The notes beneath the pieces are model-generated. The model was not told the DNA's origin. It saw only the letters and a program-made list of their open reading frames with translations, and searched no databases. A stretch of DNA of 64,000 nucleotides from Calditrichaceae bacterium (GTDB taxonomy: Bacteria; Calditrichota; Calditrichia; Calditrichales; JBFXGD01): assembly GCA_050173015.1 (NCBI GenBank), contig JBFXLE010000007.1:64001-128000 (forward strand), given 5' to 3'. Shown piece by piece: positions 1,859 through 15,535 of this stretch. How positions within the stretch are numbered: the first letter of the stretch is position 1; the number at the start of each line of letters is the position of its first letter. Made by a program: the position numbers and the translations under genes.

Positions 1859-2001
1859 GGCGGGGTTAAAACCCGGCGGATGCCAAATGATATAACATTA
1901 AATTCCGGTTTTTGGGGAAATGTAAATTCCGATTGACAATTTGGGCTGAAGCCCACCTTCATTAGGTTTCTCTTTAACCCCCGATCTAAAGATCGGGGCT
2001 A
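1859..2001. repeat. Cluster of REP-like palindromes between convergent genes (may also act as a terminator)
   Basis: GGGTTAAAACCC; TGGGCTGAAGCCCA (1942-1955); CCCCGATCT-AA-AGATCGGGG (1979-1998) abutting the hsdS stop. Confidence 0.6.
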
Positions 2002-3399
2002 TGACACACCATTAAACGCTTCCCGTAAAACCGCCTGCATCAGTTGCCCTACCTGCGCTTTGCGGGATTTGACCTGTTTTTCCAGCACGTCGATTTTTGC
2101 CATTAGCCGGTCCACTTTTTCGACAATGGCTTGTTGTTCGGCAAGTGGTGGTAAAGCAAATACAGCATTCCTTAAAACAGATTGATTCAAATTATTCATG
2201 GTCTGCCCGATAGAATTGCATAACAATTCTTTCTGAAAATAATCTGAGATAAAACCTTGAATGAAAAAACCTTTATTTATGAAATTTGAAACTTTGATAA
2301 AAAATGAACCTGTTCCACATAGCCATCCTTTTTCATTTTCAGAAACAACGGCACATTTACTTAAATCACCACGTCTTGCTAAAACGACATCATTCATATC
2401 TAAAATATATCGAGACAAGCGGTTTTTAGTGGTCTGACTGACCATCATTTTTTTATTCGCAACTATTTGATTAGCAACAATATTCATTGGATTTACTAAT
2501 GGTATTCCATCCTGCACATAGTCTGACTTATGCAACATCGTTCCAAAAGGTCCGGTTGAAAATTTATTAATTAATCCCGTCAACCGACACCAAACCCACC
2601 CTTCCGGCAGGGTAAACGGTTTTTCTGCTTCGCTGATGGGCGGCAGTTCTTTTATTTTCTTCGTGCCCTTTGTGTCCTTTGCGAGCCTGTCTTTTTCGGC
2701 TTTGATTTTTTCCAGCAACGCTTTAGCGGAATAATTGGGATCGTTCTCACAAAGTTCACGAAGTTCACTAAGATTTTTACCGGTTTCCGCGGCCAGTTTG
2801 TTCCATTGCTGTTCACGCCATGTTGCGGTCAGTTTGCCTTCCACCGCTTCCTGTAAAATGGCCTGGCGAAGTTGTTTGAGATTGTCAGACTGTTGAGAAA
2901 TATGAAAATCAATGTCACCAATTTCATTTTCTGTTCTTTTGAAAAATTCAACGATTGATTTTTGTGTATCAATATCTGGTAAATCAATCTTTAATGGTAA
3001 TAGATGTTTTGGTTTAATTTCTGTTTTTATACCACCTTTAACCTGGTCTTTTAAAAGTTGAATGAACTTAGGACTTTTTAAAAATCGTTTAAAATATTCA
3101 ACATTAATTTTTTTATCATCAAACTGATAGGAAGAATAATGAATAGTTGCAGTAATATCGACATCACCACCGTAGACAGCCAAAGCGCCTTTTGCCACAT
3201 TTATTCCGGAAATCACAAGGTCGCCTTTTTTTGCAATAATCATATCCGTCTTTGATGATTTATCAGAAAAATGCATTCCACCAGAGAAATCGATTTTATC
3301 CAGTCTTTTTAGTTTAGATACGATCGGATCACTGGGTTTGTATTTACCGACTCGTTCTTTTAAGAATTCGCTTACTTCTGTTACTTGCCAATCAGCCAT
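1999..3399 (-). CDS. hsdS: Type I restriction-modification specificity subunit
   Basis: Two TRDs with conserved regions (LRQAILQEAVEGKLT, LLEKIKAEK, EKPFTLPEGWVWCRL, LPPLAEQQAIV, LMQAVLREAF). Confidence 0.95.
   Translation of the reverse strand: MADWQVTEVSEFLKERVGKYKPSDPIVSKLKRLDKIDFSGGMHFSDKSSKTDMIIAKKGDLVISGINVAKGALAVYGGDVDITATIHYSSYQFDDKKINVEYFKRFLKSPKFIQLLKDQVKGGIKTEIKPKHLLPLKIDLPDIDTQKSIVEFFKRTENEIGDIDFHISQQSDNLKQLRQAILQEAVEGKLTATWREQQWNKLAAETGKNLSELRELCENDPNYSAKALLEKIKAEKDRLAKDTKGTKKIKELPPISEAEKPFTLPEGWVWCRLTGLINKFSTGPFGTMLHKSDYVQDGIPLVNPMNIVANQIVANKKMMVSQTTKNRLSRYILDMNDVVLARRGDLSKCAVVSENEKGWLCGTGSFFIKVSNFINKGFFIQGFISDYFQKELLCNSIGQTMNNLNQSVLRNAVFALPPLAEQQAIVEKVDRLMAKIDVLEKQVKSRKAQVGQLMQAVLREAFNGVS
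2659..2772. repeat. Inverted pair of 9-bp-periodic arms embedded in frame in hsdS
   Basis: CTTCGTG-CC-CTTTGTG-TC-CTTTGCG-AG (2659-2685) and CT-CACAAAG-TT-CACGAAG-TT-CACTAAG (2746-2772); same unit as the hairpins flanking the GxxExxY genes. Confidence 0.8.
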
Positions 3400-3442
3400 T
3401 ATTCAACTCACTCTTCAACTGTTCCAGTAATTCATCACTTTT
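3392..3442 (-). pseudogene. Diverged duplicate of the hsdM 3' end
   Basis: Translates KSDELLEQLKSELNNG* versus the HsdM end KSDALLSQLKSELNHG* (4486-4536), 13/16 identical. Confidence 0.8.
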
Positions 3443-4493
3443 TCTTACCCCCAGAATTATCCTTACCAGGCTTTTTTCGGGGTAATTTCTTTTTCGCCGC
3501 TTCCAGTTTTTTCACCGTTTTATCAAAATCGCCATCTCTTTTATCCTTAGCAACGATACGTTGAATATTGAATTTTTCATACTCATCTTCGGCAAGGGCG
3601 GCGGCCAATTCCTGAGATATTTTTCCGGCATGGGTTAAAATATCGCGCTCATTCAATTGCAGAAAAGAATCCAGTTTTTTTCGCCAGTCGCGCATAAAAA
3701 CCTGTTTATGCCGTTTGGCCTGATCTTCGGCAAAATCCAGATACATGGTTACCACGCGGTTCAGGGCTTGCAGTTCTTCTTCATTCAAATAATTCTTGGC
3801 AATCCTTACATCGCCTTTGCGTACCTTTTCACCTTTCCATGAAGTTAACCCCATATTGGGTTTGGAAGCATCCGCGCGGTCATGTACAATTTCAGCGGCG
3901 GTTTGTCCGGAAATAGCAAAGTGCAGTTTATTTTGCACTGCCTTAAAAAACTCGGGAGTCTCTTCCGCTATGGGATCATAGTCAACCGCTAATTTGTAAA
4001 TTTCCTTTATTTTTTGATAAAAGCGCTGCTCGCTGGATCGAATATCCCTGATCCGTTCCAACAGTTCATCAAAATAATCCGAACCGATATTATGGACATT
4101 CTTCAAGCGTTCATCATCCATGGTAAATCCCTTGACCATGTACTCGTTCAAACGCGCGGTAGCCCAGCGCCGGAATTGTGTACCACGGTGCGAACGGACG
4201 CGGTAACCAATGGCGATGATCGCTTCCAGATTATAAAATTGTGTACTATAATTCTTACCATCAGCGGCAGTTGTCAAGAAATCCTTGACAACTGAATTTT
4301 CATCGAGTTCGCCTTCTTTAAAGATATTATTTATATGAAGGCTGATATTTTGCTTGGTGGTCTGAAACAATTCCGCCATTAACTTCTGTGTCAGCCAAAC
4401 CGTTTCATCCTGCAGACGCACTTCTATTTTAGTTTTACCGGATTCGGTTTGATAGATGATAATCTGCGAATCGGGTTTGTTGGTTTTAGCCAT
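3435..4493 (-). CDS. RhuM-family (virulence RhuM) DNA-binding protein
   Basis: ETVWLTQKLMAELFQ, YNLEAIIAIGYRVRSHRGTQFRRWA, EYMVKGFTMDDERLK, VQNKLHFA, IAKNYL. Confidence 0.9.
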   Translation of the reverse strand: MAKTNKPDSQIIIYQTESGKTKIEVRLQDETVWLTQKLMAELFQTTKQNISLHINNIFKEGELDENSVVKDFLTTAADGKNYSTQFYNLEAIIAIGYRVRSHRGTQFRRWATARLNEYMVKGFTMDDERLKNVHNIGSDYFDELLERIRDIRSSEQRFYQKIKEIYKLAVDYDPIAEETPEFFKAVQNKLHFAISGQTAAEIVHDRADASKPNMGLTSWKGEKVRKGDVRIAKNYLNEEELQALNRVVTMYLDFAEDQAKRHKQVFMRDWRKKLDSFLQLNERDILTHAGKISQELAAALAEDEYEKFNIQRIVAKDKRDGDFDKTVKKLEAAKKKLPRKKPGKDNSGGKKK

Positions 4494-5934
4494 GGTTCAA
4501 CTCGCTCTTTAACTGACTTAGTAACGCGTCGCTTTTTCTGAATGAATCGTGCAGCATATCCAATAATTCAGCGCTTGTGTGAGTGTGTTCTTCTTCGGCA
4601 ATATGCGGATTTTTAATATCCAGATTAAAACCATTCTTTTCTAATTCTTCAATAGAAACTTTCCAGGCCTGTTCGTTGGCTTCACGCTTTGTCCACCACC
4701 GGCGCAGATTTTCAAATTCAATTTTCTGGATCGTTTTGGTTTTAGAATAAGCCTTCATTCCTTGCGGCAGTTTATGTTCCCAATACCAGATTTCTTTGGT
4801 TGCCTGCCCGCCTGTGGTGGGGCCTTTTTCAAAAAACAACAGATTGGTTGCCACGCTGGCATAGGGTTGGAACACAGAATTAGGTAAACGCACAATGGTA
4901 TGCAGATTACATGTTTCCAGAAAATGCTGACGGATGCGCTGCTTGACGCCATCGCCGGTTAAAGATCCATCCGGCAAAACAATCGCCGCCCGACCGTTTT
5001 CTTTTAAATAGCGAATCATCAAAACCAGAAAAAGGTCGGCGCTTTCCGTGGTGCGGTAATTCTGCGGAAAATTAGTTTCCACACCATCGCTTACCGATGC
5101 CCCGAAAGGCGGATTGGCGAGAATCACATCCACACGGTCTTTATGTCCGATACCGGTGTATTCGCGATTCAGGCTGTCGATATAATCCACATTGGGCACT
5201 TCAATATCATGAAGGATCAGGTTGGTCACACACAGCATAAATGGCAGCGGCTTTAATTCCATACCGTGAATGGTGGCTTCCAGATTTTTTAAATCTTCCA
5301 CGCCTTTTACATCCTGTTTGCGGATATTCTCTATGGCACAGGTTAAAAATCCGCCGGTGCCACAGGCCGGATCCAGCACTTTTTCGCCTAAACGGGGATT
5401 GATCATTTCGGTCATAAATTCGGTTAACGCGCGGGGGGTGTAAAATTCACCGTAATTACCGGCGCTTTGCAAATCGCGTAAAATAGTTTCATAGATATCA
5501 CCAAAAACGTGGCGGTCTTCGGAACTGTTAAAATCGATTTCATTCAGTTTATTGACCACCTGGCGGATGATGGTGCCGTTCTTCATATAATTGTTGGTGC
5601 CGGAAAAGATTTCACGGACAATCAATGTTCGCTTGTTGCCATTGGAAATATCAAGATTTTTCAAGGCCGGAAACAGCGTATTGTCGATAAATTCCTGCAA
5701 CTCGATCCCGGTCATCCCTTCATCATCCGCCGCCCAGTTGCGCCATTGAATAGTTGAAGGGATTGGCGATTTATAATTTTCATTGAGCAGTTCCAGTTCC
5801 TGATCTTTATCATCCAGTATCTTGAGAGAGATCATCCAGCCTAATTGCTCGATACGCTGCGCGTCACCCGAAACGCCCGGATCTTTGCGCATGATGTTTT
5901 GAAGTGTTTTTATGATATTGCCGATATTTTTCAT
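4486..5934 (-). CDS. hsdM: Type I R-M N6-adenine DNA methyltransferase subunit
   Basis: GEFYTPR, motif I DPACGTGGF, motif IV NPPF. Confidence 0.95.
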   Translation of the reverse strand: MKNIGNIIKTLQNIMRKDPGVSGDAQRIEQLGWMISLKILDDKDQELELLNENYKSPIPSTIQWRNWAADDEGMTGIELQEFIDNTLFPALKNLDISNGNKRTLIVREIFSGTNNYMKNGTIIRQVVNKLNEIDFNSSEDRHVFGDIYETILRDLQSAGNYGEFYTPRALTEFMTEMINPRLGEKVLDPACGTGGFLTCAIENIRKQDVKGVEDLKNLEATIHGMELKPLPFMLCVTNLILHDIEVPNVDYIDSLNREYTGIGHKDRVDVILANPPFGASVSDGVETNFPQNYRTTESADLFLVLMIRYLKENGRAAIVLPDGSLTGDGVKQRIRQHFLETCNLHTIVRLPNSVFQPYASVATNLLFFEKGPTTGGQATKEIWYWEHKLPQGMKAYSKTKTIQKIEFENLRRWWTKREANEQAWKVSIEELEKNGFNLDIKNPHIAEEEHTHTSAELLDMLHDSFRKSDALLSQLKSELNHG

Positions 5935-5947
5935 GTGGTTCCCTTTA

Positions 5948-6028
5948 TACTCACTAAGTTCACGAAGGACACAAAGAAAAAATTAACTTTAAAATACTCT
6001 TTGTGATCATTGTGTGCTTCGTGAGAGT
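5948..6028. repeat. 9-bp-periodic hairpin H1
   Basis: CACTAAG-TT-CACGAAG-GA-CACAAAG, AT-rich loop, CTTTGTG-AT-CATTGTG-TG-CTTCGTG-AGAGT. Confidence 0.85.
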
Positions 6029-6409
6029 CTACAATTTTCCGTTAATGATTCGTTTTAGCCCGTTTTTTAATAACACTTCGTTAAAATTTATTACCAATCC
6101 GAGTTTTAAACCGGATAATTTCAGATAAGTTAGTGTTTGTTTGAAATGAATGTCTTCCAGTTTTTTTACCGATTTGAGTTCTAATAGAACCTCATTTCCA
6201 ACAATTATATCCGCTCTAAAACCTTTATCAAACTGCAGATTTTCATAGACGACTGGAATGTCTTTCTCTACGTCAACCGATAATCCTGCCTTATTTATCT
6301 CATAAGCTAAAACATCACGGTAAACCGATTCCAGTAAACCAGGACCCAGTTTTGTATGAACTTTTAAAGCGCATTCAATAATAATTTTAGATATTTCATT
6401 TTCATTCAT
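6029..6409 (-). CDS. GxxExxY family protein (PD-(D/E)XK nuclease fold), copy 1
   Basis: VHTKLGPGLLESVY, RADIIV...LELKS, QTLTYLK, GLVINF. Confidence 0.92.
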   Translation of the reverse strand: MNENEISKIIIECALKVHTKLGPGLLESVYRDVLAYEINKAGLSVDVEKDIPVVYENLQFDKGFRADIIVGNEVLLELKSVKKLEDIHFKQTLTYLKLSGLKLGLVINFNEVLLKNGLKRIINGKL

Positions 6410-6417
6410 TTATTCTA

Positions 6418-6497
6418 TCTCACGATGTTCACGAAGGACACAAAGAAAAAATTAACTTTAAAATACTCTTTGTGATCATTGTGTGCTTCGTGAGAGT
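6418..6497. repeat. 9-bp-periodic hairpin H2
   Basis: CACGATG-TT-CACGAAG-GA-CACAAAG ... CTTTGTG-AT-CATTGTG-TG-CTTCGTG; 469 bp from H1. Confidence 0.85.
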
Positions 6498-6878
6498 CTA
6501 CAATTTTCCGTTAATGATTCGTTTTAGCCCGTTTTTTAATAACACTTCGTTAAAATTTATTACCAATCCGAGTTTTAAACCGGATAATTTCAGATAAGTT
6601 AGTGTTTGTTTGAAATGAATGTCTTCCAGTTTTTTTACCGATTTGAGTTCTAATAGAACCTCATTTCCAACAATTATATCCGCTCTAAAACCTTTATCAA
6701 ACTGCAGATTTTCATAGACCACAGGAATGTCTTTCTCTACGTCAACCGATAATCCTGCCTTATTTATCTCATAAGCTAAAACATCACGGTAAACCGATTC
6801 CAGTAAACCAGGACCCAGTTTTGTATGAACTTTTAAAGCACATTCAATAATAATTTTAGATATTTCATTTTCATTCAT
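6498..6878 (-). CDS. GxxExxY family protein, copy 2
   Basis: Protein identical to copy 1. Confidence 0.92.
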   Translation of the reverse strand: MNENEISKIIIECALKVHTKLGPGLLESVYRDVLAYEINKAGLSVDVEKDIPVVYENLQFDKGFRADIIVGNEVLLELKSVKKLEDIHFKQTLTYLKLSGLKLGLVINFNEVLLKNGLKRIINGKL

Positions 6879-6886
6879 TTTTTCTA

Positions 6887-6966
6887 TCTCACGATGTTCA
6901 CGAAGGACACAAAGAAAAAATTAACTTTAAAATACTCTCTGTGATCATTGTGTGCTTCGTGAGAGT
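6887..6966. repeat. 9-bp-periodic hairpin H3
   Basis: As H2 but CTCTGTG (6937-6943) replaces CTTTGTG. Confidence 0.85.
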
Positions 6967-7347
6967 CTACAATTTTCCGTTAATGATTCGTTTTAGCCCG
7001 TTTTTTAATAACACTTCGTTAAAATTTATTACCAATCCGAGTTTTAAACCGGATAATTTCAGATAAGTTAGTGTTTGTTTGAAATGAATGTCTTCCAGTT
7101 TTTTTACCGATTTGAGTTCTAATAGAACCTCATTTCCAACAATTATATCCGCTCTAAAACCTTTATCAAACTGCAGATTTTCATAGACCACAGGAATGTC
7201 TTTCTCTACGTCAACCGATAATCCTGCCTTATTTATCTCATAAGCTAAAACATCACGGTAAACCGATTCCAGTAAACCAGGACCCAGTTTTGTATGAACT
7301 TTTAAAGCACATTCAATAATAATTTTAGATATTTCATTTTCATTCAT
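6967..7347 (-). CDS. GxxExxY family protein, copy 3 (start corrected to ATG at 7347)
   Basis: 126 aa identical to copies 1 and 2; the ORF-track N-terminal extension only reads through hairpin H4. Confidence 0.92.
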   Translation of the reverse strand: MNENEISKIIIECALKVHTKLGPGLLESVYRDVLAYEINKAGLSVDVEKDIPVVYENLQFDKGFRADIIVGNEVLLELKSVKKLEDIHFKQTLTYLKLSGLKLGLVINFNEVLLKNGLKRIINGKL

Positions 7348-7351
7348 TACG

Positions 7352-7431
7352 ACTCTCGCAAAGTTCACAAAGGCCACGAAGAAAAAAGATTTAACTAAAA
7401 AACTTTGTGTTCTTTGTGCGCTTAGTGAGTA
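7352..7431. repeat. 9-bp-periodic hairpin H4 (diverged)
   Basis: CGCAAAG-TT-CACAAAG-GC-CACGAAG ... CTTTGTG-TT-CTTTGTG-CG-CTTAGTG-AGTA; its outer 11 bp are a perfect inverted repeat of TACTCACTAAG at 5948-5958. Confidence 0.85.
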
Positions 7432-7432
7432 A

Positions 7433-9838
7433 CTATGCTGCTTCCTTATACAATTCTGTTTCAAGTTCTTTAATCATTTTTAGATAGCCGTTTCTACCGC
7501 CAAAAAGTTTGACGATTTCCGCGGGTGTTCCGATTTCACTAAAAGGATCAATACGTAAAACCGCTAAATCTTCGATGTTTTCAATACCTTCCGTTGCGTA
7601 TTTATCAAGCAGGGCATCAATTATATTCCTTGCCTGTTCGCCATATTTAGTAAAGTAATTGCGTTTCTTCACATTTTCAGCCCGTTCGCGCCTTGTCAGC
7701 GCGGGCATATCCCAGGCCACATGACAAATCAGATCAAATAAATCCAAATCCTTTTTAACTTCTTCTTTTAGATTTTCAAGGATAATGCCTTCGGCTTCCA
7801 GTTCATCAATCAACGCTTTTTTCTTTTCGGCGGAATTCCAGCTCGACAAGAATTCATCCAGGCTGCGATATGTTTTAAGGATGTTCCTTTTCGTATAGTC
7901 TTTCAGGCTTTCTGTAATTAATGTACCATCACCATCCAAAAATTGAACACGTTCATTAAGAACTGAAACATCTACTCCCGCCACATAGATCTTATTTCTT
8001 CGTTCAGATACAATTTCTCCGCCTGTAACAGTATGTGGTTCTCCATAATCAGCATTGTTTTCACCCTCAAAGTCAATTTCTTCTCCGGATTCTTCATCTA
8101 TAAAGTCTTCCTGTCCTTCCGGATTTATATCATCATCAGTGAGCGGTTGATCCGCGTCAACTTCTTTGACCATCACCGGATCGCCGTCAAAAGCAGGATC
8201 AGCAAATAAGTCCGTGACATTGCGGAAATCCATAATGGTAAAGTAGGTTTTATCAAATTCTTCATTGATGCGTGTGCCGCGTCCGATGATCTGCTTGAAT
8301 TCGGTCATTGATTGGATATTGGAATCCAGTACAATCAGTTTGCAGGTTTGCGCGTCCACACCGGTCGACATCAATTTGGAAGTGGTGGCAATAACCGGAT
8401 AAGTCTCTTCGGGATTGATAAAATTATCCAGTTCACGTTTTCCTTCATCCTCATCGCCGGTTATGCGCATGACATATTTATAGTTTTCCTGTACCAAATC
8501 TGTATTGAAGTTAGAGATCGCCTGACGCATGCGTTCCGCATGTTCGATATCAACGCAAAAAATAATTGTCTTGTCGAAGCGGTTCGTTTTTGTTAAAAAC
8601 TCAGTAACTTTATTGGCGACTAATTCAGTACGCGGATCGATCACCAAATTGCGGTCATAATCTTTGGTATTATATAACCGGTCTTCTATCAGATTTCCGT
8701 CTTTATCGGTTTTACCTGATTCCGGCCTCCAACCTTCCAAATCCACATTAATTCCAACACGAATCACTTTATATGGCGCCAGAAATCCATCGGAAATACC
8801 TTGTCTGAGAGAATAGGTATAAATAGGATCGCCAAAATATTCTATATTTGAAACATCTCTTGTTTCTTTTGGCGTTGCGGTTAGACCAATATGAGTTGCT
8901 GTATTAAAATATTCCAGAATTTCCCGCCAGGCGCTATCAGCGGACGCGCTTCCACGATGGCATTCATCTACAACGATCAGGTCAAAAAAGTCACGACTAA
9001 ATTCTCTGTAAGCGTCTTTATCTTCATCATAGCTTGTCAAACCCTGATACAGGGCAAGGTATATTTCAAAAGCCTTGTCAATTTGCTTTTTGCGAATAAC
9101 CGTCATGCGCTCTTTGAAATGTTTGAAATCGCCGCGCTTGGTTTGATTGATTAAAGCGTTACGGTCAGCAAGAAACAGAATGCGTTTGGCAGTTCCACTT
9201 TTCCACAGACGATAAATGATTTGAAAAGCCGCGTAGGTTTTACCCGTCCCGGTTGCCATAACGATTAGAATTCTGTTTTGTCCCCGGGCGATGGCTTCAA
9301 CTGTTCTGTTAACTGCTATTTGTTGGTAATAGCGCGGCTTTCTTCCCGAACCGTCAATGAAATAATCATGGGATGAAATACGCTCTTGTTCGCTTGTTTC
9401 AATGCCTTTGAATTTTTTATAGCGGAGCCAGAGTTCTTCCGGAGCGGGAAAATTTTCCAGAGATAACTCTGTTTCGATTTGCCCGGTAGATTTAGTTCGA
9501 TCGTGTTCCAGAAAGCCATCACCATTGGAACTATATGCAACAGGAATATCCAGAATTTCAGCATAATCCAAACCTTGCTGCATACCAGCGCCAACTGAGT
9601 GCTTATTATCTTTTGCTTCAATTACGGCAATTGGAATATTGGATTTGTAGTAAAAAATGATGTCCGCTTTTTTAGCCTTGCCGCGTTTTGTTTTGTTGCC
9701 TTTAACATAAATTCGCCCGGCTGTAAAATAGACTTCCTCCCGAACTTGCTTTTGAATATCCCAACCTGCTTTTTCCAGGTTTGGAATAATATACTTGGTG
9801 ATTATGTCTCGTTCTGTTAAATCTCTTTTTGACGTCAT
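7433..9838 (-). CDS. hsdR: Type I restriction endonuclease subunit R (EcoAI/EcoEI-like)
   Basis: Nuclease ADII..IEAK, Walker A MATGTGKT, DECH box, GLTATP, QIIGRGTR, EcoEI-like C-terminal domain. Confidence 0.95.
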   Translation of the reverse strand: MTSKRDLTERDIITKYIIPNLEKAGWDIQKQVREEVYFTAGRIYVKGNKTKRGKAKKADIIFYYKSNIPIAVIEAKDNKHSVGAGMQQGLDYAEILDIPVAYSSNGDGFLEHDRTKSTGQIETELSLENFPAPEELWLRYKKFKGIETSEQERISSHDYFIDGSGRKPRYYQQIAVNRTVEAIARGQNRILIVMATGTGKTYAAFQIIYRLWKSGTAKRILFLADRNALINQTKRGDFKHFKERMTVIRKKQIDKAFEIYLALYQGLTSYDEDKDAYREFSRDFFDLIVVDECHRGSASADSAWREILEYFNTATHIGLTATPKETRDVSNIEYFGDPIYTYSLRQGISDGFLAPYKVIRVGINVDLEGWRPESGKTDKDGNLIEDRLYNTKDYDRNLVIDPRTELVANKVTEFLTKTNRFDKTIIFCVDIEHAERMRQAISNFNTDLVQENYKYVMRITGDEDEGKRELDNFINPEETYPVIATTSKLMSTGVDAQTCKLIVLDSNIQSMTEFKQIIGRGTRINEEFDKTYFTIMDFRNVTDLFADPAFDGDPVMVKEVDADQPLTDDDINPEGQEDFIDEESGEEIDFEGENNADYGEPHTVTGGEIVSERRNKIYVAGVDVSVLNERVQFLDGDGTLITESLKDYTKRNILKTYRSLDEFLSSWNSAEKKKALIDELEAEGIILENLKEEVKKDLDLFDLICHVAWDMPALTRRERAENVKKRNYFTKYGEQARNIIDALLDKYATEGIENIEDLAVLRIDPFSEIGTPAEIVKLFGGRNGYLKMIKELETELYKEAA

Positions 9839-9940: not shown

Positions 9941-10070
9941 ATTTAACAGTTAGCATAAGGGGATTTAAACCCCACGGCCAGTAGCTTCAACTTACTAAAT
10001 TTTTCTTCGGTTTAAAAGAAATTCAAAAGAACCGTACGCGTTTAAATTCCCTTTAATGCTTTTGTTATGC
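9941..10070 (-). other. attC-like integron recombination site (130 bp)
   Basis: Minus strand: R'' GCATAAC, 5-bp spacer, L'' CATTAAAG, GGAATTTAAAC ... GTTTAAATCC, L' CCTTATG, 6-bp spacer, R' GTTAAAT; two unpaired extra bases on the R''/L'' arm; begins 1 bp after the GIY-YIG stop. Confidence 0.8.
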
Positions 10071-11003
10071 ATTACTTGAATAAATCAACAACTTCTTTTG
10101 CAGATAACAATTTTTCATAAGAGGTGTATCTCGGGCTCTGCAAAATTCCCTGCTTTGCTCTGCCATATTTTATAGGCCCAATTGGTTTTGCTGGTGCAAT
10201 AAAATTCAATTTATATTTTCCACCATCCCCATAAGGTTCAATAGACTCAACTTCAGCGTAATGCGTCACTGCTGAAATAGGAGCAGTTTGATATGCGGCT
10301 ATGTATTTAATTTCATTTAGTTTTCCACCACCAATTCTAATTGCCCACCAGCAGTTTTCACCAATGAAAACATCTTTAAACCCATCTTCCTGTGCAGGAA
10401 CGATAATAGTATCTTGCAACCCCTTTTTCTTTATTATATTCTGTGGATGAGACGCAACTTCAATTTTCTTGCCCTTTTCAAACACTCTAATTTCAACCAA
10501 AGGCAGAATGCTCAAAATCTCATTAAGAAATTCCTGTGTATCAGCTCGCTCTGCTTCTGTTAATACAGGTTCATTCGGGGTTGCATTATTATCTAATTTT
10601 GATCTGCCAATACTTTTTGCTCTATCAATCAAAGCCCACTCAAGCCAAGTAATGTGTGCCCGATTAAGCCCCCCATTACTTGAGACAAAGATCAAAACTT
10701 TATCCCAGAACTCTTTATTCTTCTCGTGAGAATCAATTCGGTTTCTTACACCGTCCCCCTGACCAATGTAAAGGGTTGGGAGATCATCACCTTCCTGATA
10801 TCCAAAGAGAATATAGGCACCGGCTTGGTCAAGTTCCTTTCTGTTTCTATACTTATCCCAGTTATCTCTTGAAATTTCCAATCCAATACCAGTCCAATTC
10901 ATTTTATCAATAATTTTAAATGTATTTGGGTCCCCATCGGGAACAAATAAACGAATAGTGTAAGGTTTCGACATTTATTTTACCTCAAAATTATAATGCA
11001 TAA
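9947..11003 (-). mobile_element. Integron-type gene cassette carrying the GIY-YIG nuclease gene
   Basis: Starts at G|TTATGC (11004-10998), which is complementary to the attC R'' GCATAAC; single ORF with RBS GAGGT and no room for a promoter; ends in attC. Confidence 0.75.
10072..10974 (-). CDS. GIY-YIG nuclease with a C-terminal putative PUA/EVE-like domain
   Basis: GAYILFG...LYIGQG..VRNRIDSH...WLE; C-terminal DTIIVPA...WWAIRI...YIAAYQTAPISAVTHYAEVESIEP. Confidence 0.8.
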   Translation of the reverse strand: MSKPYTIRLFVPDGDPNTFKIIDKMNWTGIGLEISRDNWDKYRNRKELDQAGAYILFGYQEGDDLPTLYIGQGDGVRNRIDSHEKNKEFWDKVLIFVSSNGGLNRAHITWLEWALIDRAKSIGRSKLDNNATPNEPVLTEAERADTQEFLNEILSILPLVEIRVFEKGKKIEVASHPQNIIKKKGLQDTIIVPAQEDGFKDVFIGENCWWAIRIGGGKLNEIKYIAAYQTAPISAVTHYAEVESIEPYGDGGKYKLNFIAPAKPIGPIKYGRAKQGILQSPRYTSYEKLLSAKEVVDLFK

Positions 11004-11040
11004 CATATTGATTGGACGTCTCAGCTAATTATCATTTTAT
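10998..11040 (-). other. attI-like site 1
   Basis: Minus strand ATAAAATGATAATTAGCTGAGACGTCCAATCAATAT-GTTATGC; non-palindromic, ends in the cassette core site; a second copy lies at 12116-12151. Confidence 0.55.
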
Positions 11041-11365
11041 TCTAAAATTAGAAAAATTAACAATCGTAAACAGTTCACTCCTTCGTTCAACAGAATAAGT
11101 GCCTTTTAAGACACACCGCTGACCATTATGACTTTTTATTGGAATTCCGGCGCAAGATTATATCCATATAATGAGCTGACCTCTATCTGAACCACATTAT
11201 CAACCGTTTGTGTCTGCAATGATTGAAGTAAAAAAATAAAATCGTAATTATTATAAACAAAAGGAATGAAATTTTCAAGGGTGGTTTAACCTACACGTAA
11301 ACGATATACTCCTTTCCCATAGCAATTTTTGTAAACTCCGGGTTTTAATACATTCACTTATTCCC

Positions 11366-11483
11366 AATCCCGAAGGGATTACACGTTAATAGAAAAACAG
11401 ACCCCACATCATCTGCGACCCCGTGGGGGTCGAACTATTACGGCGGAAATCCTATTCTACTAAGCTGTGACACCTCCGGCGTC
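11366..11483. repeat. REP/MITE-like palindrome cluster (IS200/RAYT-associated style)
   Basis: AATCCCGAAGGGATT (11366-11380), CGACCCCGTGGGGGTCG (11416-11432), GACACCTCCGGCGTC (11469-11483). Confidence 0.6.
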
Positions 11484-11581
11484 GGAGTTTCCGGTTTTAA
11501 CCATTGATAATCGTCATACCCTTTTTCTCTTAAAACAGGGTCAATCAAGTAATAATGGGTTTCTGCTTCATTATAGGCCAT
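11438..11581 (-). pseudogene. 5' fragment of a second Type I hsdR, truncated at the REP cluster
   Basis: RBS GGAG then MAYNEAETHYYLIDPVLREKGYDDYQWLKPETP, matching the HsdR N-terminal pattern NEA(D/E)TxxxLIDPxLxxxG(W/Y); frame runs into the palindrome and stops after 47 codons. Confidence 0.65.
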
Positions 11582-11615: not shown

Positions 11616-11888
11616 TTAGCCACCATAATCTCTTACAAGTTCAAATGTCTTATACCAATAAAAGAATGCCTGCGGATTCGATTTCTTTAATTTGTTTAAA
11701 CGCGTAAAAAATGGTTGAACAGTGGCCCAATCCTTAATTTGAATCGCATTTTCAAATCGTTCCGGCGTGTTTATTTTGAATTTGATCAGCTTGCTCAAAT
11801 AAGCCGCTTTTGCCGCGTGAACAATGGCTTTTTCAATTTGATAGGTATCCGAGAAAATGAAAGCATGTATTTGTGAGATGCCGCTTTG
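11616..11888 (-). pseudogene. 3' fragment of a probable AbiEii-family nucleotidyltransferase toxin
   Basis: Frame QSGISQIHAFIFSDTYQIEKAIVHAAKAAYLS...LNKLKKSNPQAFFYWY, with a stop just upstream and no plausible start at its 5' end; resembles from memory the C-termini of Bacteroidota AbiEii proteins. Confidence 0.55.
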
Positions 11889-12025
11889 CGGTTTTTCTTA
11901 GATACGGAACTTATTCAGTCAAGCTATAATGTATTCATTGAAATCATTTGTAGAAATTACTTAAAACCAGAGAACGCCTTTTTAATCTCGCTAAAATTAA
12001 GTTTCATAATGTTTACAACATACCT

Positions 12026-12108: not shown

Positions 12109-12151
12109 AACTAAAATATTGATTAGACGTCTCTGTAAATTATACTTTTAT
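12109..12151 (-). other. attI-like site 2 (degenerate core)
   Basis: 12116-12151 matches 11005-11040 at 30/36 positions; the core reads TTTAGTT instead of GTT. Confidence 0.5.
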
Positions 12152-12216
12152 GCCAATATTGGAAATCCGGCCGAAAATTGTATCCAAATAATGAAAGGAT
12201 GATTAAGGTTGACTGT

Positions 12217-14864: not shown

Positions 14865-15395
14865 TTATTTTAACAACTCGGCGATCAGCATTACCGCGAC
14901 ACTGCAGATCAGACCGACAATAAAAGACATATAAGCAAGGCGGATAAAGCGGTATTTTTTATCCGCCAAAAATTTTCCGAGCGTATAAATTTCTCTGATT
15001 TGCAGTTCATAACTTTTGGAAGGATCATTCATTGCTTCTTCCATGGCATTTTCAAATTGTCTGTAGTCAAGCCGAACAAAGTTGCCAAAAAACAGCAGAT
15101 TAAATTCGGGGTCATTAACATCCGGAGGTTTTCCCTGTTTAATGGGCACTCGTACCTTGGGCATAACCGTATAAACCGCGAGAACCAGCGTCACGAGACA
15201 AAAGGCGATCAAGACCATCGCCGCCCACTTTAAATCGGGATCCGTTACATACCTGGCCGAAAGTGTGATCACCACCGACGCCATAGTCATAAGAATATTC
15301 GCCTTGAGATCGGCCATTGAACTGAGCTGCACATGATGGTTTCTTGTCTGTCGAACTAACTGATCAAGGTGAGCGCCCGCATGATGAATCTTCAT
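14865..15395 (-). CDS. Pycsar effector-like transmembrane protein (DUF5706/PycTM-like), standalone
   Basis: NHHVQLSSMADLKANIL, three hydrophobic helices, NLLFFGNF, EIYTLGKFLADKKYRFIRLAY; start taken at 15395 after GGGGG. Confidence 0.75.
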   Translation of the reverse strand: MKIHHAGAHLDQLVRQTRNHHVQLSSMADLKANILMTMASVVITLSARYVTDPDLKWAAMVLIAFCLVTLVLAVYTVMPKVRVPIKQGKPPDVNDPEFNLLFFGNFVRLDYRQFENAMEEAMNDPSKSYELQIREIYTLGKFLADKKYRFIRLAYMSFIVGLICSVAVMLIAELLK

Positions 15396-15535
15396 AAATC
15401 CCCCCATAAAAATAGTTTCCAAGGTCATTGTGTTTTGCGTAATTTAACAAAATCTTTTAAAAATTGTAACTACGTTGAATTTTTCATCTCTAACTAATTC
15501 AAGATTATTTTTCTATAACATAAGGAGTCAGAACA

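Follow-up and report, generated by a model that had tools for sequence, protein, structure and literature searches.

The window, a stretch of 64,000 nucleotides from one contig of a Calditrichaceae genome, carries directly upstream of the hsdR gene of a type I restriction-modification (R-M) operon an integron cassette that was probably inserted by an IntI-type integrase at a stand-alone promoter+attI platform and that encodes a GIY-YIG nuclease with a predicted reader of modified bases. About 15 such platforms are scattered over the genome, in which the search for an intact intI came back empty. Judged from its letters, the gene is a real mobile gene cassette, and one cassette alone would be ordinary. 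Integrase-less cassette clusters are mostly read as ruins or random insertions, in part because attI is unsearchable in most species, as stated in the accessible part of PMC4889954. The platforms described here would represent a further origin of such clusters, in which copies of attI and a promoter come to occupy many loci and take up new cassettes, strains differing by swaps with exact junctions. This amounts to a testable claim on how cassette clusters and defence islands arise, cognate intact integrases being present in relatives, and the cargo is a candidate, widespread and uncharacterised, for a nuclease that targets modified DNA.

The attC site follows the nuclease gene closely (Table 1). 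After the stop codon TAA, a single T precedes R'' (GCATAAC), a 5-bp spacer and L'' (CATTAAAG), while at the far end of the palindrome L' (CCTTATG) is separated by 6 bp from R' (GTTAAAT). The minus-strand site, which the sequence-only reading had described with the same 130-bp extent, distance from the stop and cores, therefore shows the complete order R''-spacer-L'' ... L'-spacer-R' with AAC and GTT cores. When folded, its bottom strand gives a hairpin in which the L boxes and the R boxes are paired (-18.6 kcal/mol, z -3.29; none of 200 shuffles was equally stable). The two extra bases that had been proposed exist as unpaired bases, but the minimum-energy fold sets them next to each other rather than apart; the canonical separated placement gives an equal count of paired bases, with A as the first extra base (bottom strand). 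The usual first extrahelical attC base is G, and A in this position is common to a subfamily of attC-like sites in this genome. A geometry scanner run over the 64-kb window reported positions 10070-9941 as the sole attC-like site, with a score of 13, a value reached by no site in 100 local shuffles of the window (six scored 11 or higher). A model of the sequence only of 16 other attC-like sites of the genome, built with the window site left out, recovered the window attC as its sole match in the window at E 1.2e-9. Rfam gave no match anywhere in the window.

Table 1. Features of the window discussed in the text, in window coordinates.
Feature	Position	Strand	Remarks
Type I R-M operon	1999..9838	minus	hsdR (EcoEI-like) 9838-7433, three GxxExxY genes, hsdM 5934-4486, rhuM-family gene, hsdS 3399-1999
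attC	9941..10070	minus	R'' 10070-10064, L'' 10058-10051, L' 9960-9954, R' 9947-9941
Inferred attC crossover G|TT	9947/9946	minus	
Gene cassette	9947..11003	minus	1057 bp between two inferred G|TT crossovers
Cassette ORF, 300 aa	10072..10974	minus	GIY-YIG ~22-160; predicted C-terminal PUA-superfamily domain (ASCH/EVE/YTH-like) ~186-294; PDC-S14 over 1-177
Ribosome-binding site GAGGT	10982..10986	minus	
attI/cassette junction core GTTATGC	10998..11004	minus	exact reverse complement of R''
Platform B (promoter, ~200-bp leader, attI)	11005..11287	minus	~15 copies in genome
attI left part	11005..11056	minus	holds a single TTTCTA..TAGAA palindrome (11056-11035) and a stretch that ends AATCAATAT; shares homology with the attI of the order's co-oriented integrons
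Predicted sigma70 promoter TTGAAA-17-TATAAT	11250..11278	minus	11/12 consensus; faces cassette (Pc-like); conserved among copies
REP-like triple-hairpin repeat	11366..11485	minus	joined to platform by linker common to other copies
hsdR-like N-terminal fragment, 33 codons	11483..11581	minus	ends where REP-like repeat starts; 41% over 32 aa, E 1e-5 pairwise; weak, unmatched in other searches
Broken AbiEii-like gene end	11619..11897	minus	behind decayed platform copy; PDLC02299, E 3e-24
Second platform copy	12112..12194	minus	decayed, internally deleted, GTT lost

At the other end of the cassette, GTTATGC sits 11 bp upstream of the ribosome-binding site and is complementary at seven of seven positions to the R'' of its own attC, while the downstream R' departs from complementarity at three of its four variable positions. 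Both observations agree with the sequence-only reading, which had taken this asymmetry for the footprint of an IntI-type insertion, and the same footprint recurs across the platform copies: in eight of 11 copies the four variable bases after GTT (positions 4-7) are the exact complement of the next attC R'', against a mean of 1.27 under permutation (p=5e-6), the test comprising those 11 of the 15 copies that have an assigned attC (three of these attCs were picked by eye, and the four copies without attC were left out). The remaining three footprints are imperfect. That the palindrome is a terminator or chance hairpin, matched coincidentally by the heptamer, is hardly conceivable even in DNA as AT-rich as this, in view of the model match, the permutation result and the failure of any shuffle to do as well; there is also no terminator-like call at the site, and identical junctions flank homologues of the gene at two loci of another genome (L075 and L076, see below). 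The footprint repeats, homologues are cassettes elsewhere, and the DNA upstream is homologous to real attI sites, so that these sequence comparisons give good support to insertion of the cassette by an IntI-type enzyme immediately before hsdR. The integron remnant of the earlier claim calls for refinement, in that the upstream DNA is no leftover of an integron once resident here: it bears no intI trace and is one of about 15 promoter+attI copies. In run X2, from a second study, the same cassette is found at the same place.

The 280 bp upstream of GTTATGC constitute a dispersed repeat whose similarity stops at GTT. BLAST with one platform query gave 18 matches in this genome and five in the sister genome, and none in 29 other genomes outside the genus; across 39 genomes, there were just matches of 23-39 AT-rich base pairs at E 2.9e-4 or worse, all of which failed an HMM check. 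An HMM of the attI end hit 15 sites in this genome at E<1e-5, ten of which keep GTT and five of which have lost it, a count that is partly circular as the platform HMMs were built from the same copies. The copies, mutually about 65-80% alike, share the elements TTGAAA-17-TATAAT, a leader of about 200 bp, one to four TTTCTA..TAGAA palindromes and the end AATAT|GTT; the promoter/leader part is also found without attI, ahead of ordinary genes. The cargo of the platforms takes in R-M genes, a KAP NTPase, an AAA protein and non-defence genes, and five of the six hsdM-like hits in the genome fall within about 5 kb downstream of a platform, the sixth being located behind a second attI family. Large multi-gene cassettes with exact footprints were observed at L040:18671-14021 (4.5 kb), L047:9736-6434 (3.2 kb) and L043:5748-8716 (2.9 kb), one of which carries radC and a fused R-M system. 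At L048:2468-2600 (contig C10 from 92467 on), a tRNA-like sequence comes immediately after a platform copy with an internal deletion, and a gene fragment comes next.

Insertion of the cassette at a random secondary (attG) site, which would make it an ordinary isolated cassette (SALIN), is experimentally precedented (as reported in the accessible text of 10.1101/2022.09.11.507474) and would account for the single attC without an integrase nearby. It is nevertheless very improbable here, since the cassette sits at the conserved end of a repeat into which cassettes have gone at many loci and which is homologous to the attI of complete integrons. Three other identities for the platform were discarded: a structured RNA (RNAalifold placed no pairs across 13 copies), decayed intI coding DNA (tblastn was matchless over the copies except for a fusion on contig C5) and the intI-attI spacer of divergent integrons (at 12 intI loci of the order, an HMM of the whole platform gave nothing below E 2.4). 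A link to integrons emerged just for the 3' end and the co-oriented type, in which intI and the array lie on the same strand.

In a complete genome of the same order (G003), one strand carries in succession intI with one internal stop, a small ORF, the same palindromes as in the platforms, the junction CTAATAT|GTTAAAC and repeated attC cassettes. Its attI stretch aligns to four long platform ends with scores of 100-121 and to the window end with a score of 67, compared with shuffle means of 39-54; none of 2000 shuffles reached the respective score for any of the five platform ends. Homology to the platform attI extends to the attI sites that follow co-oriented intI genes in G018, G031 and G010, and in G018 and G031 the small ORF follows a stop-free IntI and precedes palindromes and the AATAT end. 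The attI thus probably stems from a co-oriented integron, and the sequence comparisons make it likely that the repeated promoter/leader replaces intI and the small ORF in the other copies. By homology and footprint, an attI heads the array at the window locus. The small ORF, present in seven of the 39 genomes of the order, has a homologue in this genome as a relic upstream of the platform copy on contig C3, where a short stretch before it resembles mid-IntI by eye only and was not reported by tblastn. As a side observation, this ORF between intI and attI of co-oriented integrons encodes 112-125 aa (L033:2466-2840; C3:3130-2807) without a Pfam family, and its product could bind the TTTCTA..TAGAA palindromes.

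The genome search for intI that the sequence-only reading had called for came back negative for an intact gene, both in this genome and in its sister G001. In this genome the best hit to the IntI model reached 87.6 bits against a cut-off of 265, and the long tyrosine recombinase hits were all far below it; two long tyrosine recombinase hits came up in the sister genome, where at E 1e-60 nothing matched the IntI model. At the window locus there is no IntI similarity and no intI adjoining attI. IntI passes the cut-off in 18 of the 31 genomes searched in the order, and the assembly, 97.5% complete, consists of 54 contigs, with arrays or platforms near the ends of several of them (C3, C4, C20, C45), so that intI could lie in a gap. 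One ordinary intact integron missed by the assembly might then serve the scattered platforms, which would make the system multi-site but not integrase-less. We regard this as quite unlikely, as it would have to escape detection in a nearly complete assembly with no recombinase hit approaching the cut-off, the sister genome also lacks IntI, and the cognate intI - small ORF - attI locus of this genome is a relic only. A second dispersed attI family, composed of the decayed 3' end of a short co-oriented integrase and its own attI, occupies five sites (C5:153.6-153.9k, C9:105.8-106.1k, 110.3-110.6k and 119.1-119.4k, C43:2.4-2.7k; L045, L046, L053). It shows 7/7 footprints at three sites, two of its copies begin directly after an attC in the manner of a cassette, and an intact version exists in G025 (L111); on C5, the platform B promoter/leader is fused to a copy of this family.

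Comparison of strains indicates turnover at the platforms. Two loci from relatives (L091 and L092) are 96-98% identical to C4:31.9-39.5 kb of this genome. The match breaks off immediately behind AATAT|GTTA and is taken up again from the R' of the last attC; between these points, two other cassettes, the first with a 7/7 footprint, replace a 2.9-kb three-gene cassette. At the window platform itself, a contig of run X3, from another study, follows hsdR as far as 9829 and resumes in the platform at 11001; in between it has 909 other bases, an insert known by its length and flanks. The junction on the platform side is exact; the boundary on the hsdR side lies 117 bp past the attC crossover, and X3 therefore fits a clean cassette swap less well. 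No locus orthologous to that of the window was identified in the sister genome, where a ccmF-like best match reached 41%. Given that related strains differ in what these sites contain, the platforms are probably still being loaded, by an enzyme supplied from elsewhere. The alternative that the cassettes are frozen fossils, caught while intI was still present, with strain differences arising by homologous recombination or whole-locus transfer, is unlikely. It would explain why GTT is lost in a third of the platform copies, why integrase-gene relics persist at C3 and at the five sites of the second family, why the replacement in X3 extends past attC and why neither this genome nor its sister yields an intact intI. 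Yet strains 96-98% alike differ exactly at both crossovers, although the platform copies themselves have diverged to the extent given above, and homologous replacement could carry such an allele only after it had arisen at the same integrase-less platform; moreover, the window ORF is intact and has close homologues elsewhere.

Under the reading we prefer, insertion by IntI at a stand-alone platform, an ancestral integron (intI - small ORF - palindromic repeats - attI) would have lost intI, its attI would then have fused to a repeated strong promoter/leader, and this unit would have multiplied, often together with a REP-like repeat. IntI acting in trans, from a visiting element or from a gene in an assembly gap, would load cassettes by attC x attI recombination; the folded attC of a circular cassette would have recombined with the platform attI, here directly before hsdR. 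The platform promoter would express the promoterless cassette, and the nuclease may complement the type I system next to it, whose targets are unmodified sites. According to the available part of PMC2095811, an integrase is specific for its cognate attI, and the donor IntI should accordingly be of the G018/G031 type. Taken further, this leads to a tentative picture, to which we give slightly less than an even chance, of a distributed integron: the genus may have made the promoter+attI unit multicopy and spread it without the integrase, giving at least ten expressed capture sites for any visiting cognate IntI; these sites would seed defence islands, one of them having captured a GIY-YIG/PUA-like nuclease against modified phage DNA.

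Compared with a complete integron, the window locus shares an attI-headed array (by homology) and differs in having no intI beside attI. With SALINs and CALINs, as described in the accessible portions of PMC4889954 and 10.1101/2022.09.11.507474, it has in common one or few attC cassettes without intI nearby, and mobilisation in trans has been proposed for those elements in the same sources; here, by contrast, the locus retains attI together with a predicted Pc-like promoter, a pair of which the genome has about 15 copies. The definition of SALINs given in the available text of 10.1101/2022.09.11.507474 specifies no other att site nearby, which excludes the window locus since an attI-homologous site lies directly upstream. 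Origins of CALINs listed in the accessible part of Cury et al. (2016; PMC4889954) are loss of intI, secondary-site insertion and rearrangement, multiplied attI not being among them there, and the CALINs at fixed loci in Xanthomonas are described, in the portion of 10.1101/2025.06.18.660453 available to us, without attI platforms. Integrons with a co-oriented ('inverted') integrase, for instance in Treponema, appear in the part of PMC4889954 at hand, and an attI downstream of intI is reported for archaeal integrons in the accessible text of PMC9668308. The attI of the co-oriented type is homologous to that of the platforms, in which the repeated promoter/leader takes the place of intI and the small ORF and the unit occurs at scattered loci instead of once. 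Delta-attI-type cassettes of mobile integrons resemble the platforms in having a recombining attI away from its home platform; according to the accessible part of PMC12901181 they are partial attI sites serving as cassette ends within one array, whereas here full promoter+attI units head separate loci. Our literature searches, within the papers accessible to us, found no report of multicopy integrase-less attI platforms, nor of such platforms among integrons of the lineage to which the protein features point. A metagenome scan for the platform pattern gave two records only, and viral contigs contained neither the pattern nor a homologue of the cassette gene.

The cassette protein has no Pfam or NCBIfam hit. 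Its designation as a GIY-YIG protein, made initially from the sequence, is upheld by fold search, conserved residues and the names of homologues. The structure model of the full protein (pLDDT 88) places a GIY-YIG fold at the N-terminus (2lwf, Z 7.8; UvrC 1ycz, Z 6.0), and residues 186-294 match ASCH (Z 7.9, rmsd 3.1, 105 aligned), YTH (7.6), EVE-like (7.3) and the VcaM4I reader (6.4); nearly all top matches of this region are ASCH, YTH or EVE domains, each at Z below 8, and Foldseek gave none at E 0.001. The single-sequence model of the C-terminal domain alone (pLDDT 51) was left out of the fold search, and the Atlas lead is 'Pua-like' at 0.81, for 18% of members. Y54, R79, H83, E112 and N129, which we take to be the GIY-YIG active site with a catalytic role as in I-TevI, are invariant in 90 sequences, as are W209, R213 and Y228 of the C-terminal domain. 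Based on these models, we see roughly equal chances for and against the protein being a modification-dependent nuclease that binds modified bases via its PUA-like domain and cuts nearby. Residues 1-177 match five PADLOC PDC-S14 models (best E 2e-54), while the C-terminal 120 residues lie outside the match; PDC systems are uncharacterised candidates according to the accessible text of PMC10855318. Fusions of PUA-type domains to nucleases, GIY-YIG included, are presented in the available parts of PMC7641849 and PMC11037411 as known or predicted modification-dependent restriction enzymes, often situated beside type I systems. The window protein shares with such fusions (EVE-HNH VcaM4I, EVE-GIY-YIG) the pairing of a nuclease and a predicted PUA-like domain beside type I R-M genes; it differs from them in that GIY-YIG comes first and in that the C-terminal domain, without a Pfam family, is unassignable to EVE, YTH or ASCH. 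Integron cassettes as anti-phage genes are already known, as reported in the accessible portion of 10.1101/2024.07.02.601686. The present analysis contributes this platform copy, the strain-level swaps and the predicted PUA-like domain.

The protein has 2206 homologues, up to 94% identical to it, and a search of the other 38 genomes of the order for the gene gave nothing, which makes it a likely recent arrival. At three of 30 loci the stop codon of the homologue is immediately followed by an attC, and the core upstream is complementary at 7/7 positions, one from a Thiotrichaceae genome (L066) and two from one Sedimenticolaceae genome (L075 and L076). The latter two show the same GTTATGC and GCATAAC as the window and are situated in arrays of repeated attCs. 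At L064 the R'' end alone is retained, scanner hits at L069 and L080 were rejected as attC because their cores mismatch, and at the remaining 24 loci there is no attC; none of the 30 has intI within 4 kb. An R-M gene is nearby at three of the 30 loci, and at L063 the homologue directly precedes hsdR. A separate observation concerns L075:2530-4741, where about 1.3 kb of inserted DNA interrupts the homologous gene near codon 55, both cassette junctions being intact.

Many platform copies follow the REP-like hairpin repeat via a common linker, and this fixed linkage, together with the hsdR-like stub ending at the repeat, hints at REP-linked movement of the platform. The repeat occurs at about 45 other places in the genome, often in tandem, and ORFs with the look of IS200-like transposases are found elsewhere in the genome. 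The AbiEii-like remnant has a 2-base difference at 11851 in runs X2 and X3. Further upstream, 14865-15428 (minus strand) encodes a stand-alone Pycsar effector-like (PycTM) membrane protein (E 2e-22), beside which a cyclase was looked for in vain by eye.

Downstream of the cassette, the R-M operon as part of the cassette was rejected for lack of a terminal attC; as no attC follows hsdS, the operon lies outside the cassette. A hairpin at 9884-9860 stands ahead of hsdR. Between hsdM and hsdS it contains a RhuM-family gene (PADLOC PDC-S05) at 3435-4493 (minus strand). Three tandem GxxExxY (TIGR04256) genes, identical at the protein level, occupy 6029-7347 (minus strand) between hsdR and hsdM with a period of 469 bp, each bounded by short CACGAAG-type repeats. 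The contig depth of this repeat is about 2.4x, 1x and 2x in runs X1, X2 and X3, respectively, which hints at a variable copy number of the GxxExxY genes.
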